This document shows positions 35,001 to 62,322 of a DNA stretch of 64,000 bases, in pieces. Under the pieces are notes generated by a model. It did no database searches and was not told the DNA's origin. It saw only the letters and a list, made by a program, of their open reading frames with translations. The position numbers were made by a program, and so were the translations under genes. Every line of letters starts with the position of its first letter. The first letter of the stretch is position 1. This DNA comes from Escherichia coli (GTDB lineage: Bacteria > Pseudomonadota > Gammaproteobacteria > Enterobacterales > Enterobacteriaceae): NCBI RefSeq assembly GCF_003019035.1, contig NZ_CP027447.1; one strand, 5' to 3'.

Positions 35001-35060
35001 TGATGCGCCGCGCGATAAACGTACCTATTTCCGTGAGATAAATTACATCGCCGCGGCATT
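35001..35060. repeat. Putative prophage terminal sequence (Mu right-end-like, transposase-binding-like repeats)
   Basis: TGATGCGCCGCGCGATAAACG resembles the Mu R-end TGAAGCGGCGCACGAAAAACG (recalled from memory); repeated CGnGATAAA motifs; lies 78 bp beyond the invertase stop. Confidence 0.45.
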
Positions 35061-35078
35061 TCAATATCAGAAAAAGAA

Positions 35079-35651
35079 TTACAACTCAGCTTGAGTTTGA
35101 AGTTCCTCTACAGGGTGATAACGATAAATCGTCGATATACCGATATCGTAAATAATTGCCAACTGTTTCCTGCTATAGCCATTTTTGATCAGCCTTGCTA
35201 TTTGTTCATGTTGCTCTTTTGTCAGTTTCGGACGACGTCCACCAATACGCCCCTGTGCACGTGCTGCTTCAAGTCCGGCCAGTGTTCGTTCGACTATTAA
35301 TTCACGCTCCATTTCCGCTAAAGCCCCCATGACGTGAAAAAAGAAACGTCCCATGGGTGTTGACGTATCAATGCTGTCTGTAAGACTACGGAAGTTAACC
35401 CCTTTTTCCCGCAGTTCCTCAATAAGAGTGATTAGGTGTTTCATGCTTCTGCCCAGCCTGTCCAGCTTCCAGACAACGAGCGTATCTCCTTCTGATAACG
35501 TTCTGAGCAGCTTTTTCAATCCCGGTCGGGCTGACTTTGTTCCGCTGATTTTATCCTCAAAAATCAGTTCACATCCTGCGCAGTTCAGTGCGTTTCGTTG
35601 TAAATCTGTATTCTGGTCATTTGTTGACACACGAATGTAGCCAATTTGCAT
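35079..35651 (-). CDS. Serine-recombinase DNA invertase (Gin/Pin/Hin family)
   Basis: Start taken at MQIGYIRVSTNDQNTDLQRNAL (190 aa); catalytic-Ser N-terminal motif and C-terminal HTH; closest to Pin/Gin by memory. Track ORF 35079..35846 is over-extended. Confidence 0.92.
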   Translation of the reverse strand: MQIGYIRVSTNDQNTDLQRNALNCAGCELIFEDKISGTKSARPGLKKLLRTLSEGDTLVVWKLDRLGRSMKHLITLIEELREKGVNFRSLTDSIDTSTPMGRFFFHVMGALAEMERELIVERTLAGLEAARAQGRIGGRRPKLTKEQHEQIARLIKNGYSRKQLAIIYDIGISTIYRYHPVEELQTQAEL

Positions 35652-35722
35652 GAAAAATATCCTCTTTGTTTTGTTAAAAATACATAGCTGGTATAGGTGG
35701 GAGTTAAGACGAAAACGTTGGT

Positions 35723-36184
35723 TTGGGGGAAGGCTCTGCACTACCTGTTGGTGTGCCTGTTCCATGGCCGTCAGCCACACCGCCAACAGGGTGGCTGAAA
35801 TGTAACGGTGCAGCATTTTCTTCTGAAATGTACCCCAATCTGGCAAAGGCTTACCCCACGAATAAATTACCGGATTTACGGGGCGAATTTATCCGTGGCT
35901 GGGATGACGGACGAGGTATTGATGCAGGACGAGAGATACTTTCATTTCAGGAAGGCACTATCGTCTCCGGTTTTGATGATAATGATACTGGGGATATCAG
36001 TTCACTTAGCTCAACACAATACGGATTTGGTGACACTCTAACCTCTAATCAATGGGGGGCCATAAATGGCAAAAAGTGGATATTTGATGCATCCAGTAAA
36101 GGTGCACAAAAATATGACTGGTGGGCTTATGTATCAGCTCGTCCGCGTAATATTGCATTTAATTACATCGTAAGAGCGGCATAG
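35723..36184 (+). CDS. Tail-fibre C-terminal alternative cassette A (start-less, inverted relative to the fibre gene)
   Basis: Shares the conserved block GEGSALPVGVPVPWPSATPPTGWLKCNGAAFSSE...RGEFIRGWDDGRGID and the conserved end RPRNIAFNYIVRAA with the expressed fibre; no ATG (the track start is an alternative TTG codon). Confidence 0.7.
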   Translation: MGEGSALPVGVPVPWPSATPPTGWLKCNGAAFSSEMYPNLAKAYPTNKLPDLRGEFIRGWDDGRGIDAGREILSFQEGTIVSGFDDNDTGDISSLSSTQYGFGDTLTSNQWGAINGKKWIFDASSKGAQKYDWWAYVSARPRNIAFNYIVRAA

Positions 36185-36194
36185 AAACGTTGGT

Positions 36195-36671
36195 TTGGGG
36201 GAAGGCTCTGCACTGCCCGTTGGTGTACCTGTTCCGTGGCCCTCAGCCACTCCACCAACGGGCTGGCTGAAATGCAACGGCGCAGCATTTTCTTCTGAAG
36301 ATTACCCCAAACTGGCACAGGCTTACCCCGCGAACAAATTACCGGATCTACGGGGTGAATTTATCCGTGGCTGGGATGACGGGCGAGGGATTGATGCAGG
36401 ACGTGCTTTATTAAGCTTTCAAACTGGGATGCTGGAAAAACACCGCCATATTGTTGTAGCTAACGATGGGTATGACACAAAGGATGAATGGGAGTTGGCC
36501 ACAATTTTCAAAAAAACATATACACAAGGACGGGGACTTGATGCCACAAGTACAGGCGGGAGTCTGATCCCATCACCGACACTTCATTCACGAGGGAGTA
36601 TTGGTAACACTGGTGGTAGTGAAACTCGCCCCCGCAATATCGCATTTAACTATATCGTGAGGGCGGCTTAA
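36195..36671 (+). CDS. Tail-fibre C-terminal alternative cassette B (start-less, inverted)
   Basis: Same conserved 5' block and 3' end as cassette A, with a different central region; immediately follows cassette A. Confidence 0.7.
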   Translation: MGEGSALPVGVPVPWPSATPPTGWLKCNGAAFSSEDYPKLAQAYPANKLPDLRGEFIRGWDDGRGIDAGRALLSFQTGMLEKHRHIVVANDGYDTKDEWELATIFKKTYTQGRGLDATSTGGSLIPSPTLHSRGSIGNTGGSETRPRNIAFNYIVRAA

Positions 36672-36677
36672 TTATAC

Positions 36678-37295
36678 TCAACTGGCTGCTGCCAGAGGCA
36701 TTTCCGGCCAGTTGATATCCGGTGCAGTGCTGATGTCAGTCGCATTAAGCGTATCTATGAAATCAAGCACGGCGTTTAGTTTTTCCGTCTCCTGGGGCGT
36801 CAATCGGCGTCCGGCTCGTAGTTTGAGATTAATAAGCTCAACAGATGCCATTGCCTGTTCCTCAAGTTGCTGACGATGCGCTCCGGCAGCTTCCAGTTCT
36901 GCTGCGTGCTGTCGTCTCGTATCTGTCACCCAAATCTCACCATCCCAGACATCATAGATAGTAGCTGGCTGTTTCACCGTCGTATCAGGAGGGTAATCTC
37001 CCGGTTGTGTGATTTGCACAGCGTTACCATTCTCTGTGCTGTAAACCGTTTCGCCTCTGTGGTCTGGAACATATTTCCAGATGTTCTGGTCGGTATCACG
37101 ACAGACAGCGAAGCCGGGGCGTTTTTCTGGTGGCGCGTCAATGCATGAGTGAGCCGGAATTCCAACACCATAAGCGAGATACTCAACAGTGGCAGAGAGA
37201 TATTCACGGTTTTCAGCATCGTAGTTATAAACGGTAATATCGCCTGCAGTTATAGCGATACCATTCTGATCAAGTACTGCAGCAGCATTATTCAT
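36678..37295 (-). CDS. Tail-fibre assembly protein (Mu U / P2 G-like chaperone)
   Basis: 205-aa ORF of the tail-fibre assembly family; its start overlaps the cassette C stop (TAATG). Confidence 0.8.
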   Translation of the reverse strand: MNNAAAVLDQNGIAITAGDITVYNYDAENREYLSATVEYLAYGVGIPAHSCIDAPPEKRPGFAVCRDTDQNIWKYVPDHRGETVYSTENGNAVQITQPGDYPPDTTVKQPATIYDVWDGEIWVTDTRRQHAAELEAAGAHRQQLEEQAMASVELINLKLRAGRRLTPQETEKLNAVLDFIDTLNATDISTAPDINWPEMPLAAAS

Positions 37296-37819
37296 TAAGT
37301 AGCCCTTACAATATAGTTAAACGCAATATTACGGGGGCGGTTTTCCGTTCCTGTATTCCCTCCGTTGGCACCTAATCTATAAACACCACGAGTGCCAATA
37401 GCACGTAGTGAAGATGGAACTTTTACACCTGACTCATCTGTTTTAACAATCCCGCCATCACCGTATGTAGCCAGTATACCAGGGTTTGTTCCTGCACGGG
37501 TGCTGTTTGCGGCAAGCCCTTCACCAGTCCATAACTCCATATAATGAATATGATCTATAACCGAATGTGATTGTGCATTAAGCAAGGAACGCCCTGAATC
37601 AATTCCCCGCCCGTCATCCCAGCCACGAATAAACTCGCCCCGTAAATCCGGTAATTTATTGGTGGGGTAAGCCTTTGCCAGTTTGGGGTACATTTCAGAA
37701 GAAAATGCTGCACCGTTACATTTCAGCCACCCCGTTGGCGGCGTGGCTGAAGGCCATGGAACGGGCACACCAACGGGCAGCGCCGAGCCTTCCCCTAAAC
37801 CAACGTTTTCATGCGGCTC
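37295..37819 (-). CDS. Tail-fibre C-terminal alternative cassette C (start-less, direct orientation)
   Basis: Frame is open from the stop at 37820-37822; encodes ENVGLGEGSALPVGVPVPW...ENRPRNIAFNYIVRAT; no ATG. Confidence 0.7.
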   Translation of the reverse strand, partial: EPHENVGLGEGSALPVGVPVPWPSATPPTGWLKCNGAAFSSEMYPKLAKAYPTNKLPDLRGEFIRGWDDGRGIDSGRSLLNAQSHSVIDHIHYMELWTGEGLAANSTRAGTNPGILATYGDGGIVKTDESGVKVPSSLRAIGTRGVYRLGANGGNTGTENRPRNIAFNYIVRAT

Positions 37820-38351
37820 TTACGATGTAATTGAATGCAACGTTGCGGGGGCGTGTTTCTGCTGTGCCGACAATACTGGTACTCAGTCCTGTCGCTGTTC
37901 GTTTGTTATTTTTATTCCCTTCGATAAGACAGTTGTAATCGTCATTACCAATTAACGAGTTGGTGGCATCAATACCGTCCGGGGACAAGGCATTAGTTGT
38001 GGAACTTAAAGTCAGCATCTCGTCTGAACTTGGAAGATTTTTTAATGGGGTCTCATTACGTGAAATACCCGCATAAAAAAAGGACTCATGCCTGTGCGCT
38101 TCAAAAGAGTCATCCTGAAGACTTAGCAAGGCACGCCCAGCATCCAAGCCACGTCCATCATCCCAGCCACGGATAAATTCACCCCGTAGATCCGGTAATT
38201 TGTTCGCGGGGTAAGCCTGTGCCAGTTTGGGGTAATCTTCAGAAGAAAATGCTGCGCCGTTGCATTTCAGCCAGCCCGTTGGTGGAGTGGCTGAGGGCCA
38301 CGGAACAGGTACACCAACGGGCAGTGCAGAGCCTTCCCCAAACCAACGTTT
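37809..38351 (-). CDS. Tail-fibre C-terminal alternative cassette D (start-less, direct; G-tract one nt shorter than in the others)
   Basis: Conserved 5' block and RPRNVAFNYIVRAA end; the frame begins directly after the fibre gene's TAG stop; ggtttgggg here versus ggtttggggg in the fibre and cassettes A and B. Confidence 0.65.
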   Translation of the reverse strand, partial: KRWFGEGSALPVGVPVPWPSATPPTGWLKCNGAAFSSEDYPKLAQAYPANKLPDLRGEFIRGWDDGRGLDAGRALLSLQDDSFEAHRHESFFYAGISRNETPLKNLPSSDEMLTLSSTTNALSPDGIDATNSLIGNDDYNCLIEGNKNNKRTATGLSTSIVGTAETRPRNVAFNYIVRAA

Positions 38352-39317
38352 CTATGCTGCTCTCACAATGTAGTTAAAGGCGATGTTGCGTGGACGAGTT
38401 ACATTAAAAAAGGACCCACTTAAAGCAGCTTTGGCACGACCAGCGACGTTACCCAGAATTGCATACCATAAATAATCACTCCTGTAATTCGTTGAAAATG
38501 TTTTATCGCCACCGTAATCAATACTATTTCCGTTACTCATATATGAAATATCAACTGCGGCATCATTGTCATCTCTACCACCAACCAAAGTACCTTTCTG
38601 CCACCCAAGCAACTGGCGACCAGGATCAATCCCGCGCCCGTCATCCCAGCCACGGATAAATTCACCCCGTAAATCCGGTAATTTATTGGTGGGGTAAGCT
38701 TTTGCCAGTTTGGGATACATTTCAGAAGAAAATGCTGCACCGTTACATTTCAGCCAGCCCGTTGGTGGTGTTGCTGAGGGCCACGGAACAGGCACACCAA
38801 CGGGCAGCGCAGAGCCTTCCCCCAAACCAAGGTTTTTGACAAACAGCGCAGGATCAGGAATATCTGCGCCGTTCTGGTCTTTAGCCAGCTTTTCCGCCAG
38901 CTTGTTCAGTACCGTAGTCGCAAAGTTTGGATCATTACCGAGAGCGTCAGCCAGCTCTTTAAGCGTATCCAGTGTCTCAGGGGCGCTGCCTGCAAGCGCC
39001 GCAAGTGCTTTGGCCACAAACTCCGTTGTCGCCAGCTTTTTGCTGTTATCGCCATTTGCAGGTGTAGGTGCTGTTGGTGTGCCGGTGAATGTCGGACTGG
39101 CTTTCTGTGCGTACTGGGTATGCGGGTCTGCTGCCGCGATGTGTTTCGCAAGGTCAGCCCCGCCTTTTTCAACCTGTTGCTTCAGGTACAGCGTGCGGCT
39201 GGCCAGTTGTTTACCCTGACGGTTAGAAATTCCGTCAGGTCCGCCCAGAACGGGGTCAGAGACCTCAATCTGGTAGATGCCGTCTTCCCACTGCGGGGTT
39301 TCGGGTAGATTTGCCAT
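38352..39317 (-). CDS. Tail fibre protein (constant N-terminal part plus the currently fused variable C-terminal part)
   Basis: 321-aa ORF; residues from about 165 onward carry the same conserved block and end as the cassettes. Confidence 0.88.
   Translation of the reverse strand: MANLPETPQWEDGIYQIEVSDPVLGGPDGISNRQGKQLASRTLYLKQQVEKGGADLAKHIAAADPHTQYAQKASPTFTGTPTAPTPANGDNSKKLATTEFVAKALAALAGSAPETLDTLKELADALGNDPNFATTVLNKLAEKLAKDQNGADIPDPALFVKNLGLGEGSALPVGVPVPWPSATPPTGWLKCNGAAFSSEMYPKLAKAYPTNKLPDLRGEFIRGWDDGRGIDPGRQLLGWQKGTLVGGRDDNDAAVDISYMSNGNSIDYGGDKTFSTNYRSDYLWYAILGNVAGRAKAALSGSFFNVTRPRNIAFNYIVRAA
38817..38842. promoter_or_regulatory. Candidate invertase crossover site (hix/gix-like 26-bp imperfect palindrome) at the fibre constant/variable junction
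   Basis: TTCCCCCAAACC-AA-GGTTTTTGACAA; the right half matches the hixL half GGTTTTTGATAA at 11 of 12 positions (consensus recalled from memory); an equivalent GGTTTGGGGGAA half-site starts every cassette. Confidence 0.4.
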
Positions 39318-39976: not shown

Positions 39977-40993
39977 TCACCAGTTCGACCGGTACACCCC
40001 GGAAACGGACAACACGCTGATAATCTGGCTGGGAACAATATCGCGCCCCAGCGTGGCGGTACGGGATGCCACCCAGTTCTGTATGGCGCTGTTAGCGTTG
40101 TCCTTTACCAACCTTGCATCCTGATCACGATAGATCGTAATCCTGGCTTCAATGGTGTAATCCACCTGAACAGGTGTTTTAGCCCGCACGGTATCAGTGA
40201 GTGGTCTGACTTTTTCGTCAGAACAGAAACTCTCTACCAGAGTGAGGATACTGCTGTCCGGCAGACCAGTGCTGAGCAGCGGATACAGCTCGACAGTGCC
40301 GGGAGCGGGAGAAAGAACAGCAACGTCGACAATGCCGGGATGCGCCCCCATAGCATGAAAACGGTATGCACCACGGCTTCCGGCATTGGTGAATGACTCC
40401 GGGGCCAGCCTGATACGCTCCCGGAGTCGGTCATCGTCTTCCTGCTCTGAACCGCCAGAGCTGGCCGTCAGATTGGTCACCAGCAGGTCAATGTTATCAA
40501 TCTCATCGAGTAACTGACTGACCTGCGCCGGTTGCCAGCCGTTGCCAGCGGTACCCGGCTCGGTACAGGTGGCCGTGACATTGACCAGCAGCAATCCGGC
40601 CTTCAGCACCACATCTGTATCGGTGGCAAAAATAATACTGTCGGAAGCGCTGACGCGGGTGCCTGCCGGGATCAGCACATCAATGGCCAGTGCCTCATCC
40701 ACAGAGAACTGAAGTGTGGTGGTGGCAGGCTGCGCAGCAAGGCGGTATACACCGACCAGTTCACCGAGGTAATCAATCATCGGCTCCCGGGAAAAGGCGA
40801 CCAGATTCAGCTTCGCCGCCTCCTGTACCGCCACCCTGACCAGCATTTCGCGATAGGCCCACAGGTCTATCAGCAGACGTTCTGCCTGTGCCGGGTACAA
40901 CGTTTTGCCGGTATCCGCTTCATACTTCGCAATCATTTCTGCCGTGATTTTATCGGCATCGCGTTCAATAAAATCGGGTTCTGTCAGCGCCAT
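39977..40993 (-). CDS. Baseplate protein J-like (P2 gpJ / Mu gp47)
   Basis: 338-aa ORF; overlaps the W-like gene upstream. Confidence 0.75.
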   Translation of the reverse strand: MALTEPDFIERDADKITAEMIAKYEADTGKTLYPAQAERLLIDLWAYREMLVRVAVQEAAKLNLVAFSREPMIDYLGELVGVYRLAAQPATTTLQFSVDEALAIDVLIPAGTRVSASDSIIFATDTDVVLKAGLLLVNVTATCTEPGTAGNGWQPAQVSQLLDEIDNIDLLVTNLTASSGGSEQEDDDRLRERIRLAPESFTNAGSRGAYRFHAMGAHPGIVDVAVLSPAPGTVELYPLLSTGLPDSSILTLVESFCSDEKVRPLTDTVRAKTPVQVDYTIEARITIYRDQDARLVKDNANSAIQNWVASRTATLGRDIVPSQIISVLSVSGVYRSNW

Positions 40994-41331
40994 AGCAGTT
41001 CCTGAGTACGGGGTTGTCCGTCTGAGCCTTTCCAGCTCACCCGGAGCGTAAGATGTTCGCCGTCGACGGCGGGTTTAACCGACATAAGCTGGCAGCGGGG
41101 TTCCCAGCGCCTGATGGCATCGACGGATTCGCGAACCACATGCGGAATGGCCCGGTCGACAGGCCAGTCGATATAAAGGTGCAGATTGCTGCCGAACTCC
41201 GGGCGATGCGGGTCGCTGCCGCGGGGAGTCCGCAGGATGATCTGGATGGACTGCCGGATATCATCCAGCCCCCGGACGATTTCGCCGGGAGCCTGCAGAG
41301 CTGGTTGCCAGAATACTGAGGTCGTTTTCAT
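40984..41331 (-). CDS. Baseplate wedge protein (P2 gpW / T4 gp25-like)
   Basis: 115-aa ORF with a GPW/gp25-like sequence. Confidence 0.75.
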   Translation of the reverse strand: MKTTSVFWQPALQAPGEIVRGLDDIRQSIQIILRTPRGSDPHRPEFGSNLHLYIDWPVDRAIPHVVRESVDAIRRWEPRCQLMSVKPAVDGEHLTLRVSWKGSDGQPRTQELLWR

Positions 41332-41387
41332 GGAGGCAGTATTGCCCCCGGGAAGTAAGCACCGATATTAAAGGCGTTTAAGAAGGT

Positions 41388-61557: not shown

Positions 61558-62322
61558 ATGAAAATGCAGTCATTACCCATCGTTCCATGGATTGGTGGCA
61601 AACGCCGCCTTGCAAAACACATTCTGCCGCTGTTTCCGGCGCATGAATGTTATGTGGAGCCGTTTTGTGGGGCAGCAGCGCTCTATTTTCTTAAGACACC
61701 CGGCAAGATCGAAGTCATTAATGATATCAACGGTGAACTGGTGAATCTGTACCGGGTGGTAAAGCATCACCTGGAAGAATTTGTCCACCAGTTCAAATGG
61801 GCGCTGGTCAGCCGTCAGATCTACAAGTGGCTGCAGATCACCCCGGAAGAAACACTGACGGATATCCAGCGTGCAGCACGGTTCTACTACCTCCAGAAGC
61901 AGGCGTTTGGCGGCAAGGTAGCAGAACACAGCTTCGGTACCTCCACCACATCCCCGCCACGCTTCAACCTGCTGCGTATTGAAGAAGAACTGTCAGCGGC
62001 ACACCTGCGACTTTCCAGAACAGTCATAGAACACATGGACTGGCAACAGTGCATTGAGCGCTATGATCGTCCGCACACGCTGTTCTACTGTGATCCGCCG
62101 TATCTGGGTACGGAAGGCTATGGTGTGGATTTTCCTGAAGGGAACTACTCGCGGCTGGCAGAGCTGGCCCGGTGCATCAGAGGAAAAATGATAATTTCGG
62201 TGAACGACATCCCGCAGATGCGCGAGGTGTTCACTGGACTGAACATACAGACAGTGAATATCAACTACAGTCTGGCGGGGAAACCCACGCCGCGCCGTGA
62301 ACTGATAATCTGCAACTTCTGA
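61558..62322 (+). CDS. DNA adenine methyltransferase (Dam / D12 class N6-adenine MTase)
   Basis: 254-aa ORF with an N-terminal AdoMet-binding region and the DPPY catalytic motif (YCDPPYLGTEGYG). Confidence 0.85.
   Translation: MKMQSLPIVPWIGGKRRLAKHILPLFPAHECYVEPFCGAAALYFLKTPGKIEVINDINGELVNLYRVVKHHLEEFVHQFKWALVSRQIYKWLQITPEETLTDIQRAARFYYLQKQAFGGKVAEHSFGTSTTSPPRFNLLRIEEELSAAHLRLSRTVIEHMDWQQCIERYDRPHTLFYCDPPYLGTEGYGVDFPEGNYSRLAELARCIRGKMIISVNDIPQMREVFTGLNIQTVNINYSLAGKPTPRRELIICNF

Follow-up and report, generated by a model that had tools for sequence, protein, structure and literature searches.

In this report we describe a tail-fibre locus carried by a prophage of Escherichia coli (assembly GCF_003019035.1, contig NZ_CP027447.1), in which five alternative fibre tips, one chaperone gene and the gene of a serine DNA invertase are arranged around five crossover sites. 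The locus lies within a stretch of 64,000 nucleotides, the whole of which was analysed and which is hereafter called the window. We consider it very probable that this locus is the host-range switch of a transposable Mu/BcepMu-like prophage, that is, the counterpart of the G segment of Mu, in which two sites have grown to five. The sites, the reading frames, the protein families and nine isomeric orders of the same phage are all matters of direct observation. The system, apparently a working one, joins the Min (p15B) class of multiple-inversion systems as a new member, and its mechanism has been known since the 1980s and 1990s from Mu G, P1 C and p15B Min.

Read along the minus strand, the baseplate genes are followed by the tail-fibre gene (38352-39317, minus strand, 321 aa), cassettes D and C, the tail-fibre assembly gene tfa, cassettes B and A, and the invertase gene. 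An earlier note on this DNA, made from the sequence without database searches, had described one tail-fibre gene and four cassettes lacking an ATG, with C and D direct and A and B inverted, and all of these are present at the positions it gave. It had also proposed that each module opens with the same block of roughly 200 bp and ends with a conserved RPRN(I/V)AFNYIVRA(A/T) sequence. That ending is present, and a repeat finder returned five copies of the block, 219-275 nt long and 83-94% identical. Three of these lie along the minus strand and the other two, their inverted partners, along the plus strand, so that the repeats are not direct-only. Absent from the note was tfa, the sole chaperone gene of the system, located between C and B. 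Downstream of the constant 5' part of the fibre gene (Hc) there are four modules, each edged by the same type of site: E, which is the tip joined to Hc here; D; a central two-faced module of 1612 nt, C-tfa/B (M), which holds tfa; and A.

The crossover site has the 26-bp form xxxxxxxAAACS-TT-GGTTTGGGGGAA, and one copy stands at the head of each cassette. The note had suggested that an alignment of the 5' blocks would place it, and the blocks do so: each opens with the 12-mer AAACSTTGGTTT, and the 16-mer AAACSTTGGTTTRGGG occurs exactly five times in the 64 kb, once per block head, against an expectation of 0.01 from shuffled sequences. Three sites are oriented along the minus strand and two along the plus strand, and one invertase gene serves them all. 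Each consists of two imperfect 12-bp half-sites around a 2-bp core, as is typical of the Din family. The core AAACS-NN-GGTTT and its flanks are common to the five sites and to those read from the reference genomes of Mu (gix, TTATCCAAAACC-TC-GGTTTACAGGAA), P1 (cixL, CAATCCTAAACC-TT-GGTTTAAGAGAA) and e14 (pix, CTCTCGAAAACC-TT-GGTTTGGGAGAA and TTTTCATAAACG-TT-GGTTTGGGAGAA), and the sites of the window agree with the published consensus, ...AAACC NN GGTTT... (PMC4134206). Furthermore, fibre residues 143-167 align with residues 150-174 of Mu S, a stretch that spans the boundary of the Mu G segment, where the peptide LFVKNLGL here corresponds to LFIQNLGL in Mu S.

Hc was spliced in silico to each cassette at the central TT, and the exact fusion proteins were looked up in a collection of 15 billion proteins. 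The fusions to A (317 aa), B (322 aa), C (331 aa) and E (321 aa) are open directly, and the fusion to D (341 aa) is open after restoring one missing G. All five have exact matches in public E. coli assemblies; Hc-A was found on five contigs, Hc-B is WP_077888948.1, Hc-C was found on three contigs, and the repaired Hc-D is present in two assemblies. As sequenced in the window, the site of D reads GGTTTGGGGAAGG and not GGTTTGGGGGAAGG, with GGGG where the others have GGGGG, and D lies in the -1 frame relative to Hc. The Hc-D splice stops after 188 aa, and an exact look-up of this truncated protein in the same collection returned nothing. In addition, the deletion displaces the outer portion of the right half-site at site 2. 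Five Gs stand at this position in all relatives examined, so the 1-nt deletion is private to the window and represents either a real mutation or a homopolymer error. Because of it, only four tips are usable as sequenced; the earlier estimate of up to five receptor-binding tips therefore holds for the phage, for which all five fusions exist, and fails for the window. Frameshifted silent cassettes recur, one in A33 (L013, 6077-6570) and D itself (window 38336-38339), as would be expected if silent tips are free of selection while unexpressed.

Megablast of the whole locus against complete E. coli genomes gave no record covering at least 80% of it in one piece, so the search for the same prophage was made through the exact protein look-up. 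The contigs matched in this way were divided at the central TT of every site, and the resulting pieces were compared with the window. The alternative junctions that the note had proposed to look for were recovered: eight further module orders of this prophage are present, with modules 99.8-100% identical (Table 1). At the DNA level, identity is 100.00% for modules E and A and 99.82% for D (the one extra G), and the C-tfa/B module, which occurs in both orientations, is 100% identical in seven other isolates and 99.81% in L022. On the invertase (pin) side identity is 100%, over the 3 kb that precede site 1, Hc included, it is 99.4-99.97% in all isomers, and the host DNA past the prophage end differs in every isolate. 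Module E is 100.00% identical yet silent and inverted in L017, L018, L019 and L021. Each of the five tips occupies the expressed position in at least one of the nine orders, and the AAGACGAAAACG half of site 5 remains beside pin in every isomer.

Table 1. Module orders of the same prophage, read from Hc towards the invertase gene (M, the C-tfa/B module)
Source	Order
Window	E+ D+ M+ A-
L017	D+ M- A- E-
L018	D+ M+ E- A-
L019	M+ A- E- D-
L021	M- E- A- D-
L023	A+ D+ E+ M+
L024	A+ E+ M- D-
L025	A+ D+ E+ M-
L026	A+ E+ D+ ... (contig ends)

If only inversions between opposed sites are permitted, five sites generate 48 reachable isomers and six sites generate 240, and the one-faced modules must lie in the + orientation to the left of M and in the - orientation to its right. 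All nine observed orders, nine of the possible 48, fit this orientation rule, which argues for inversion between opposed sites, the sole process giving that pattern. Inversion rather than deletion is also what the module content indicates, with all modules retained in eight of the nine copies. From the order in the window six single inversions are possible, two of which change the tip: site 1 with site 4, giving B, and site 1 with site 5, giving A. With five Din sites in both orientations and isomers in public assemblies, the layout is that of a multiple-inversion host-range system, as the earlier note had put it. One copy of the same prophage, L022 (GCA_008917035.1, SKEK01000375.1, 7001-9740), has two sites and only C-tfa/B between Hc and the invertase gene. 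It resembles a minimal version in the style of the G segment without A, D and E, which could be due to deletion between direct sites or blocks or to an assembly collapse.

The invertase starts with the ATG at 35651, in favour of which a 255-aa open reading frame (ORF) beginning with TTG was set aside. At 190 aa, with an N-terminal catalytic domain (Pfam Resolvase, 2.6e-51) and a C-terminal helix-turn-helix domain (HTH_7, 2.8e-13), it matches the Din family in size (~185-195 aa) and domain organization. The catalytic serine is conserved in YIRVSTNDQ, and 183 residues align with the Gin structures 4m6f and 3uj3 of the PDB at an E of about 1e-90 (best Gin E=6e-91). Identity is 81.5% to e14 PinE, the closest of those compared, 73.7% to P1 Cin and 71.1% to Mu Gin, which bears out the single Pin/Gin-type invertase of the earlier note. 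By analogy with other Din systems, a Fis-dependent recombinational enhancer may lie within the 5' part of the invertase gene. Synonymous-codon identity among pin, gin, cin and pinE, four genes only, amounts to 0.57 (0.52-0.70) over the first ~110 nt and to 0.40 over the remainder of the gene, which fits a conserved cis element overlapping the coding sequence, and in the P1 record the Cin enhancer is placed at cin nt 19-90. A simple Fis motif scan found one Fis-like 15-mer common with gin (nt 94-108) and no convincing pair of sites.

The following mechanism is proposed. The late operon would transcribe a single fibre gene, whose constant ~162 codons end in F-V-K-N-L-G-L. The invertase would bind the five sites and, together with host Fis and the putative enhancer described above, would pair one minus-strand with one plus-strand site, as its relatives do. 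Cutting at the central TT and strand rotation would then invert the DNA between the two sites, and the cassette brought beside Hc would be the expressed tip, since every cassette has the same frame at the site. Judging from Mu, P1 and related systems, a change of tip should alter receptor specificity, and a lysogen population would, on induction, release a burst containing particles of differing tips and mixed host range. In the state captured by the window, tip E is the one expressed and cassette D is disabled.

The exchange points themselves can be located in a relative with four sites, 95-98% identical, which lies inside yehQ in mouse E. coli 3-72, DEF2, FEA3 and 8178. Its modules of 472, 1612 and 439 nt, as well as 1.5 kb of each flank, are 100% identical and occur in four orders. 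Because the head blocks differ among its cassettes, the breakpoints can be bracketed: they lie somewhere in the interval that starts 2-9 nt before the central TT and ends 22-40 nt after it. This bears on whether the orders might have been produced by RecA-dependent homologous recombination between the ~220-nt inverted blocks, with the invertase incidental. The length and identity of the blocks would in principle suffice for RecA, but all exchanges in the four-site relative lie within an interval of 24-49 nt holding the 26-bp site and outside the remaining ~180 nt; this confinement of the exchange to the site, out of 220 nt of homology, speaks against general homologous recombination. Moreover, in eight isolates modules cut at the TT show 100.00% identity in their new surroundings, recombination of this kind would delete DNA between direct repeats whereas nearly all copies keep every module, and an intact Din invertase with canonical sites is present. 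We regard homologous recombination as very unlikely to be the source of the isomers.

Site-specific inversion in this very strain is a further matter, and a number of observations weigh against our interpretation of the locus as a working switch. The evidence for switching comes from other isolates and not from reads of this strain, the window scan found no sigma-70-like promoter for the invertase, only one Fis-like motif is common with gin, the synonymous-codon signal rests on four genes, and the lone tfa, antisense in half of the isomers, is left unexplained by the Mu model of one chaperone per tip. The array might accordingly be frozen in this lysogen, a silent relic whose invertase, enhancer or sites have ceased to function, the diversity seen elsewhere having arisen in other hosts or during lytic growth; the source of the isomer data and the missing promoter would suit such a history, and the private deletion in site 2 and cassette D does speak for some decay. 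On the other side, the invertase ORF and the pin-side DNA up to the prophage end are 100% identical to copies found in other isomers, the other four sites are identical to those of relatives, and the prophage looks complete within the window, with head, tail and lysis genes; we think a frozen array improbable. Also to be reckoned with is that most isomers come from short-read drafts (L017-L026 are draft contigs), in which repeats of ~220 nt and 83-94% identity could be mis-joined, so that the isomers would be artefacts of assembly. However, all eight orders fit the orientation rule, which random mis-joins would not, four orders occur in closed genomes of the four-site relative, which behave alike, and PacBio reads and PCR have shown inversion at this type of site in other E. 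coli prophages (PMC4134206; PMC4272514). Mis-assembly thus appears hardly credible, and we retain the host-range switch as the interpretation of the locus.

The chaperone gene deserves separate attention. In half of the 48 isomers tfa is antisense to the fibre operon, and tip B is never co-transcribed with it. The antisense state is the assembled one in L017, L021, L024 and L025, four of the eight same-phage orders in which the central module is resolved, as well as in the relatives 8178, A31 and A33. We put forward, as a tentative and on balance rather doubtful proposal, that such isomers are of one of two kinds. If they are infective, collar-type tips would fold without a dedicated Tfa, or tfa would be expressed in any orientation; if they are non-infective, the switch would have OFF states without fibres built into it, which would add a second level of phase variation to the selection of the tip. 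As far as we found, neither outcome is documented for Din systems in the literature.

The coordinates of the locus are collected in Table 2.

Table 2. Features of the tail-fibre locus and its surroundings in the window
Feature	Coordinates	Strand	Remarks
Constant 5' part of tail-fibre gene (Hc), ~162 codons	38830..39317	-	ends ...ADIPDPALFVKN at crossover site
Module E, tip joined to Hc here, 160 codons + stop	38352..38829	-	
Cassette D, silent, direct	37809..38345	-	-1 frame relative to Hc in the window
Cassette C, silent, direct	37295..37802	-	stop overlaps tfa start (TAATG)
Tail-fibre assembly (chaperone) gene tfa, 205 aa	36678..37295	-	Pfam Caudo_TAP, 1.3e-25
Cassette B, silent, inverted	36191..36671	+	
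Cassette A, silent, inverted, adjoins invertase gene	35719..36184	+	
Serine DNA invertase (Din family), 190 aa	35079..35651	-	Resolvase + HTH_7
Putative recombinational enhancer (Fis-binding region), first ~110 nt of invertase gene	35542..35651	-	candidate
Right end of transposable prophage, ...TTTATCGCGCGGCGCATCA	35001..35078	-	homology among copies stops here
Site 1, inside expressed gene, encodes VKNLGLGE	38817..38842	-	TTGTCAAAAACC-TT-GGTTTGGGGGAA
Site 2, right half one G short of G5 run	38333..38358	-	AGCATAGAAACG-TT-GGTTTGGGGAAG
Site 3	37790..37815	-	CGCATGAAAACG-TT-GGTTTAGGGGAA
Site 4	36178..36203	+	GGCATAGAAACG-TT-GGTTTGGGGGAA
Site 5	35706..35731	+	AAGACGAAAACG-TT-GGTTTGGGGGAA

All cassettes, A to E, have in common an invariant stretch of the first ~79 aa and the 14 aa of the conserved C-terminus. 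The variable middle comprises 63-87 residues, fewer than the 80-120 codons given in the earlier note, which had also called the middles completely different; overall identity between A and E is 71%, and an H-x-H motif is common to B, C and D. Directly behind the collar block, the tips fall into two classes, B, C and D with H-x-H (EKHRH, DHIHY, EAHRH) and A and E with G-x-DDND; the H-x-H resembles metal-binding motifs in T4 gp12 and gp37. A domain search detected a Phage Tail Collar domain in the fibre, and the tip of T4 gp37 (2XGF) aligns with the N-terminal block and with the C-terminal NIAFNYIVR, as do the collars of short tail fibres. In T4 gp37 the two stretches together make up a single collar domain, into which the variable part, with the receptor-binding surface, is inserted. 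Homology to the gp37 collar suggests that the first ~79 and last ~14 residues of each tip probably form one fold, and the 63-87 variable residues are presumably the receptor-binding part. The match to the collar probably accounts for the head and tail that the cassettes have in common. A scan of eight proteins against NCBIfam gave sub-threshold or generic matches only.

Automatic annotation assigns the cassettes TTG or GTG starts of their own, and separate expression from these was rejected. The TTG "start" is the Leu codon of the G-L-G inside the crossover site and is without a Shine-Dalgarno sequence, and an independent start of cassette A was dismissed in view of an in-frame stop three codons upstream. 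In a promoter and terminator scan nothing rose above the shuffle expectation, and nothing was found 5' of the invertase gene or of tfa.

On the strength of its ends and gene content, the host element is a transposable Mu/BcepMu-like myovirus prophage. Every copy ends in ...GCGCGGCGCATCA (for comparison, the right end of Mu reads ...TTTTTCGTGCGCCGCTTCA) and is followed by different host DNA, often within a disrupted gene (L001, L002, L008, L009, L017-L025). In the window the chromosome up to ~35004 is 100% identical to that of E. coli SCU-301, and no com or mom genes follow the invertase gene. The genes of the window are those for tail, head, packaging and lysis, and the transposase end of the prophage lies beyond 64000. 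The relative in 3-72, which splits yehQ, encodes a DDE transposase, an ExeA-type ATPase, Gam and Mor. A precise end joined to unrelated host DNA in each lysogen, together with such genes, is what is expected of a transposable phage. A search of a phage database gave only partial matches to the switch region; the closest isolated phage is Escherichia phage PhiKM, 94.5% identical over the structural genes. Near-identical copies at at least eight insertion sites indicate that the phage is circulating now.

Several further observations concern neighbouring genes. A prophage-encoded DNA methyltransferase ORF (61558-62322, plus strand; phrog_56, E=2e-99) lies upstream of the lysis genes. The baseplate J gene (39977-41080, minus strand) has 338 aa from its first ATG, and in all relatives it is called with 367 aa and a start overlapping the W gene; the true start is probably an upstream GTG or TTG. 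In L002-L007, from mouse E. coli, there is an extra 876-nt ORF (WP_001371051.1) between baseplate genes V and W, where the window has ~56 nt (41332-41387). Its product is annotated as a PD-(D/E)XK nuclease domain protein or as hypothetical, and it may be a moron or a defence gene.

Systems of this type are not rare, nor is the present one the largest. The conserved block or the invertase gene occurs in 1933 of 5426 complete E. coli genomes, and in systematic surveys the tail genes of phages number among the chief targets of programmed inversion (PMC9881135). Five cassettes are not unusual, since A31 also has five sites and A33 has seven. The P1-like plasmid pEH09-18-41_2 has at least nine sites in the stretch fetched, where nine silent cassettes and the expressed gene bring the number of tips to ten, with a single tfa. 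C-type and A-type cassettes fall into clusters, at 90% identity or more, with "phage tail protein" fragments of Salmonella enterica serovar Typhi, one member being found on at least 1000 contigs, which indicates that the same tip families circulate in Salmonella prophages.

What is particular to the present system is its Mu/BcepMu-like host element with a five-site G counterpart, and the unusually complete public record of its isomers. It amounts to a transposable coliphage in circulation with a five-tip receptor-binding repertoire. The cassettes, which have no start of their own, are routinely mis-called as separate "phage tail protein" genes, a point of relevance for annotation. Further uses can be seen in the quality control of assemblies and in host-range engineering by means of modular collar-domain tips with fixed junctions.

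Among known systems, the shufflon of R64 and other IncI plasmids likewise shuffles the C-terminal cassettes of a surface-recognition protein by multiple inversions. It does so with the tyrosine recombinase Rci, 19-bp sfx repeats and the pilus adhesin pilV, in contrast to the serine invertase, 26-bp Din sites and Collar-domain fibre found here. Lacking a recombinase of the Rci type, the locus can be called a shufflon, as the earlier note did, only loosely; the strict R64 sense of the term (Rci, sfx, pilV) does not apply. Closer in kind are a P2-like prophage of enteropathogenic E. coli (EPEC) and the prophages of EC958, which have fewer sites (three and two, respectively) and are P2-like, whereas the element here is transposable. 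In EPEC, three inverted repeats yield four variants with three C-termini, as confirmed by PCR (PMC4272514). The site of EC958 Phi2, ...AAACGTT GGTTTGGGGGAA, lies in a 227-bp repeat encoding a Collar domain, and PacBio reads show its inversion; for Phi1 about half of the PacBio reads are inverted (PMC4134206). The P segment of e14 in E. coli K-12, for which inversion has been verified experimentally (PMC4272514), has nearly the same sites (pix) and the closest of the invertases compared, PinE. It differs in having two sites, two tips and two tfa genes (tfaP and tfaE) in a defective lambdoid element.

The G segment of Mu with Gin and the C segment of P1 with Cin show the same succession of constant fibre part, invertible DNA and invertase gene, at the right end of a transposable phage in the case of Mu, with the same site core and invertases 71-74% identical to this one. 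Each of the two has a pair of sites and a pair of tips, every tip with its own chaperone (U and U'), against five sites, five collar tips and one chaperone here; in addition, the central dinucleotide is TC in Mu and TT here, and the com and mom genes that follow the Mu invertase gene are absent. The nearest parallel is Min of p15B, a plasmid prophage of E. coli 15T-, which, like the present locus, combines one Din-family invertase with more than two sites in both orientations and 3' fibre segments that each start at a site. Reportedly, Sandmeier et al. in 1990 gave 240 isomers for Min with its six sites. Min is also cited as a multiple-inversion system in PMC6906374, and P1/p15B-like plasmids of present-day E. 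coli carry the same type of site and cassette (L012). Compared by its description, p15B differs from our system in being a P1-like plasmid rather than a chromosomal transposable prophage, and the constant part of the fibre is short here (162 codons). The placing given in the earlier note, more complex than Mu G or P1 C and closer to p15B Min, is therefore sound: with five crossover sites, the locus stands one short of Min.

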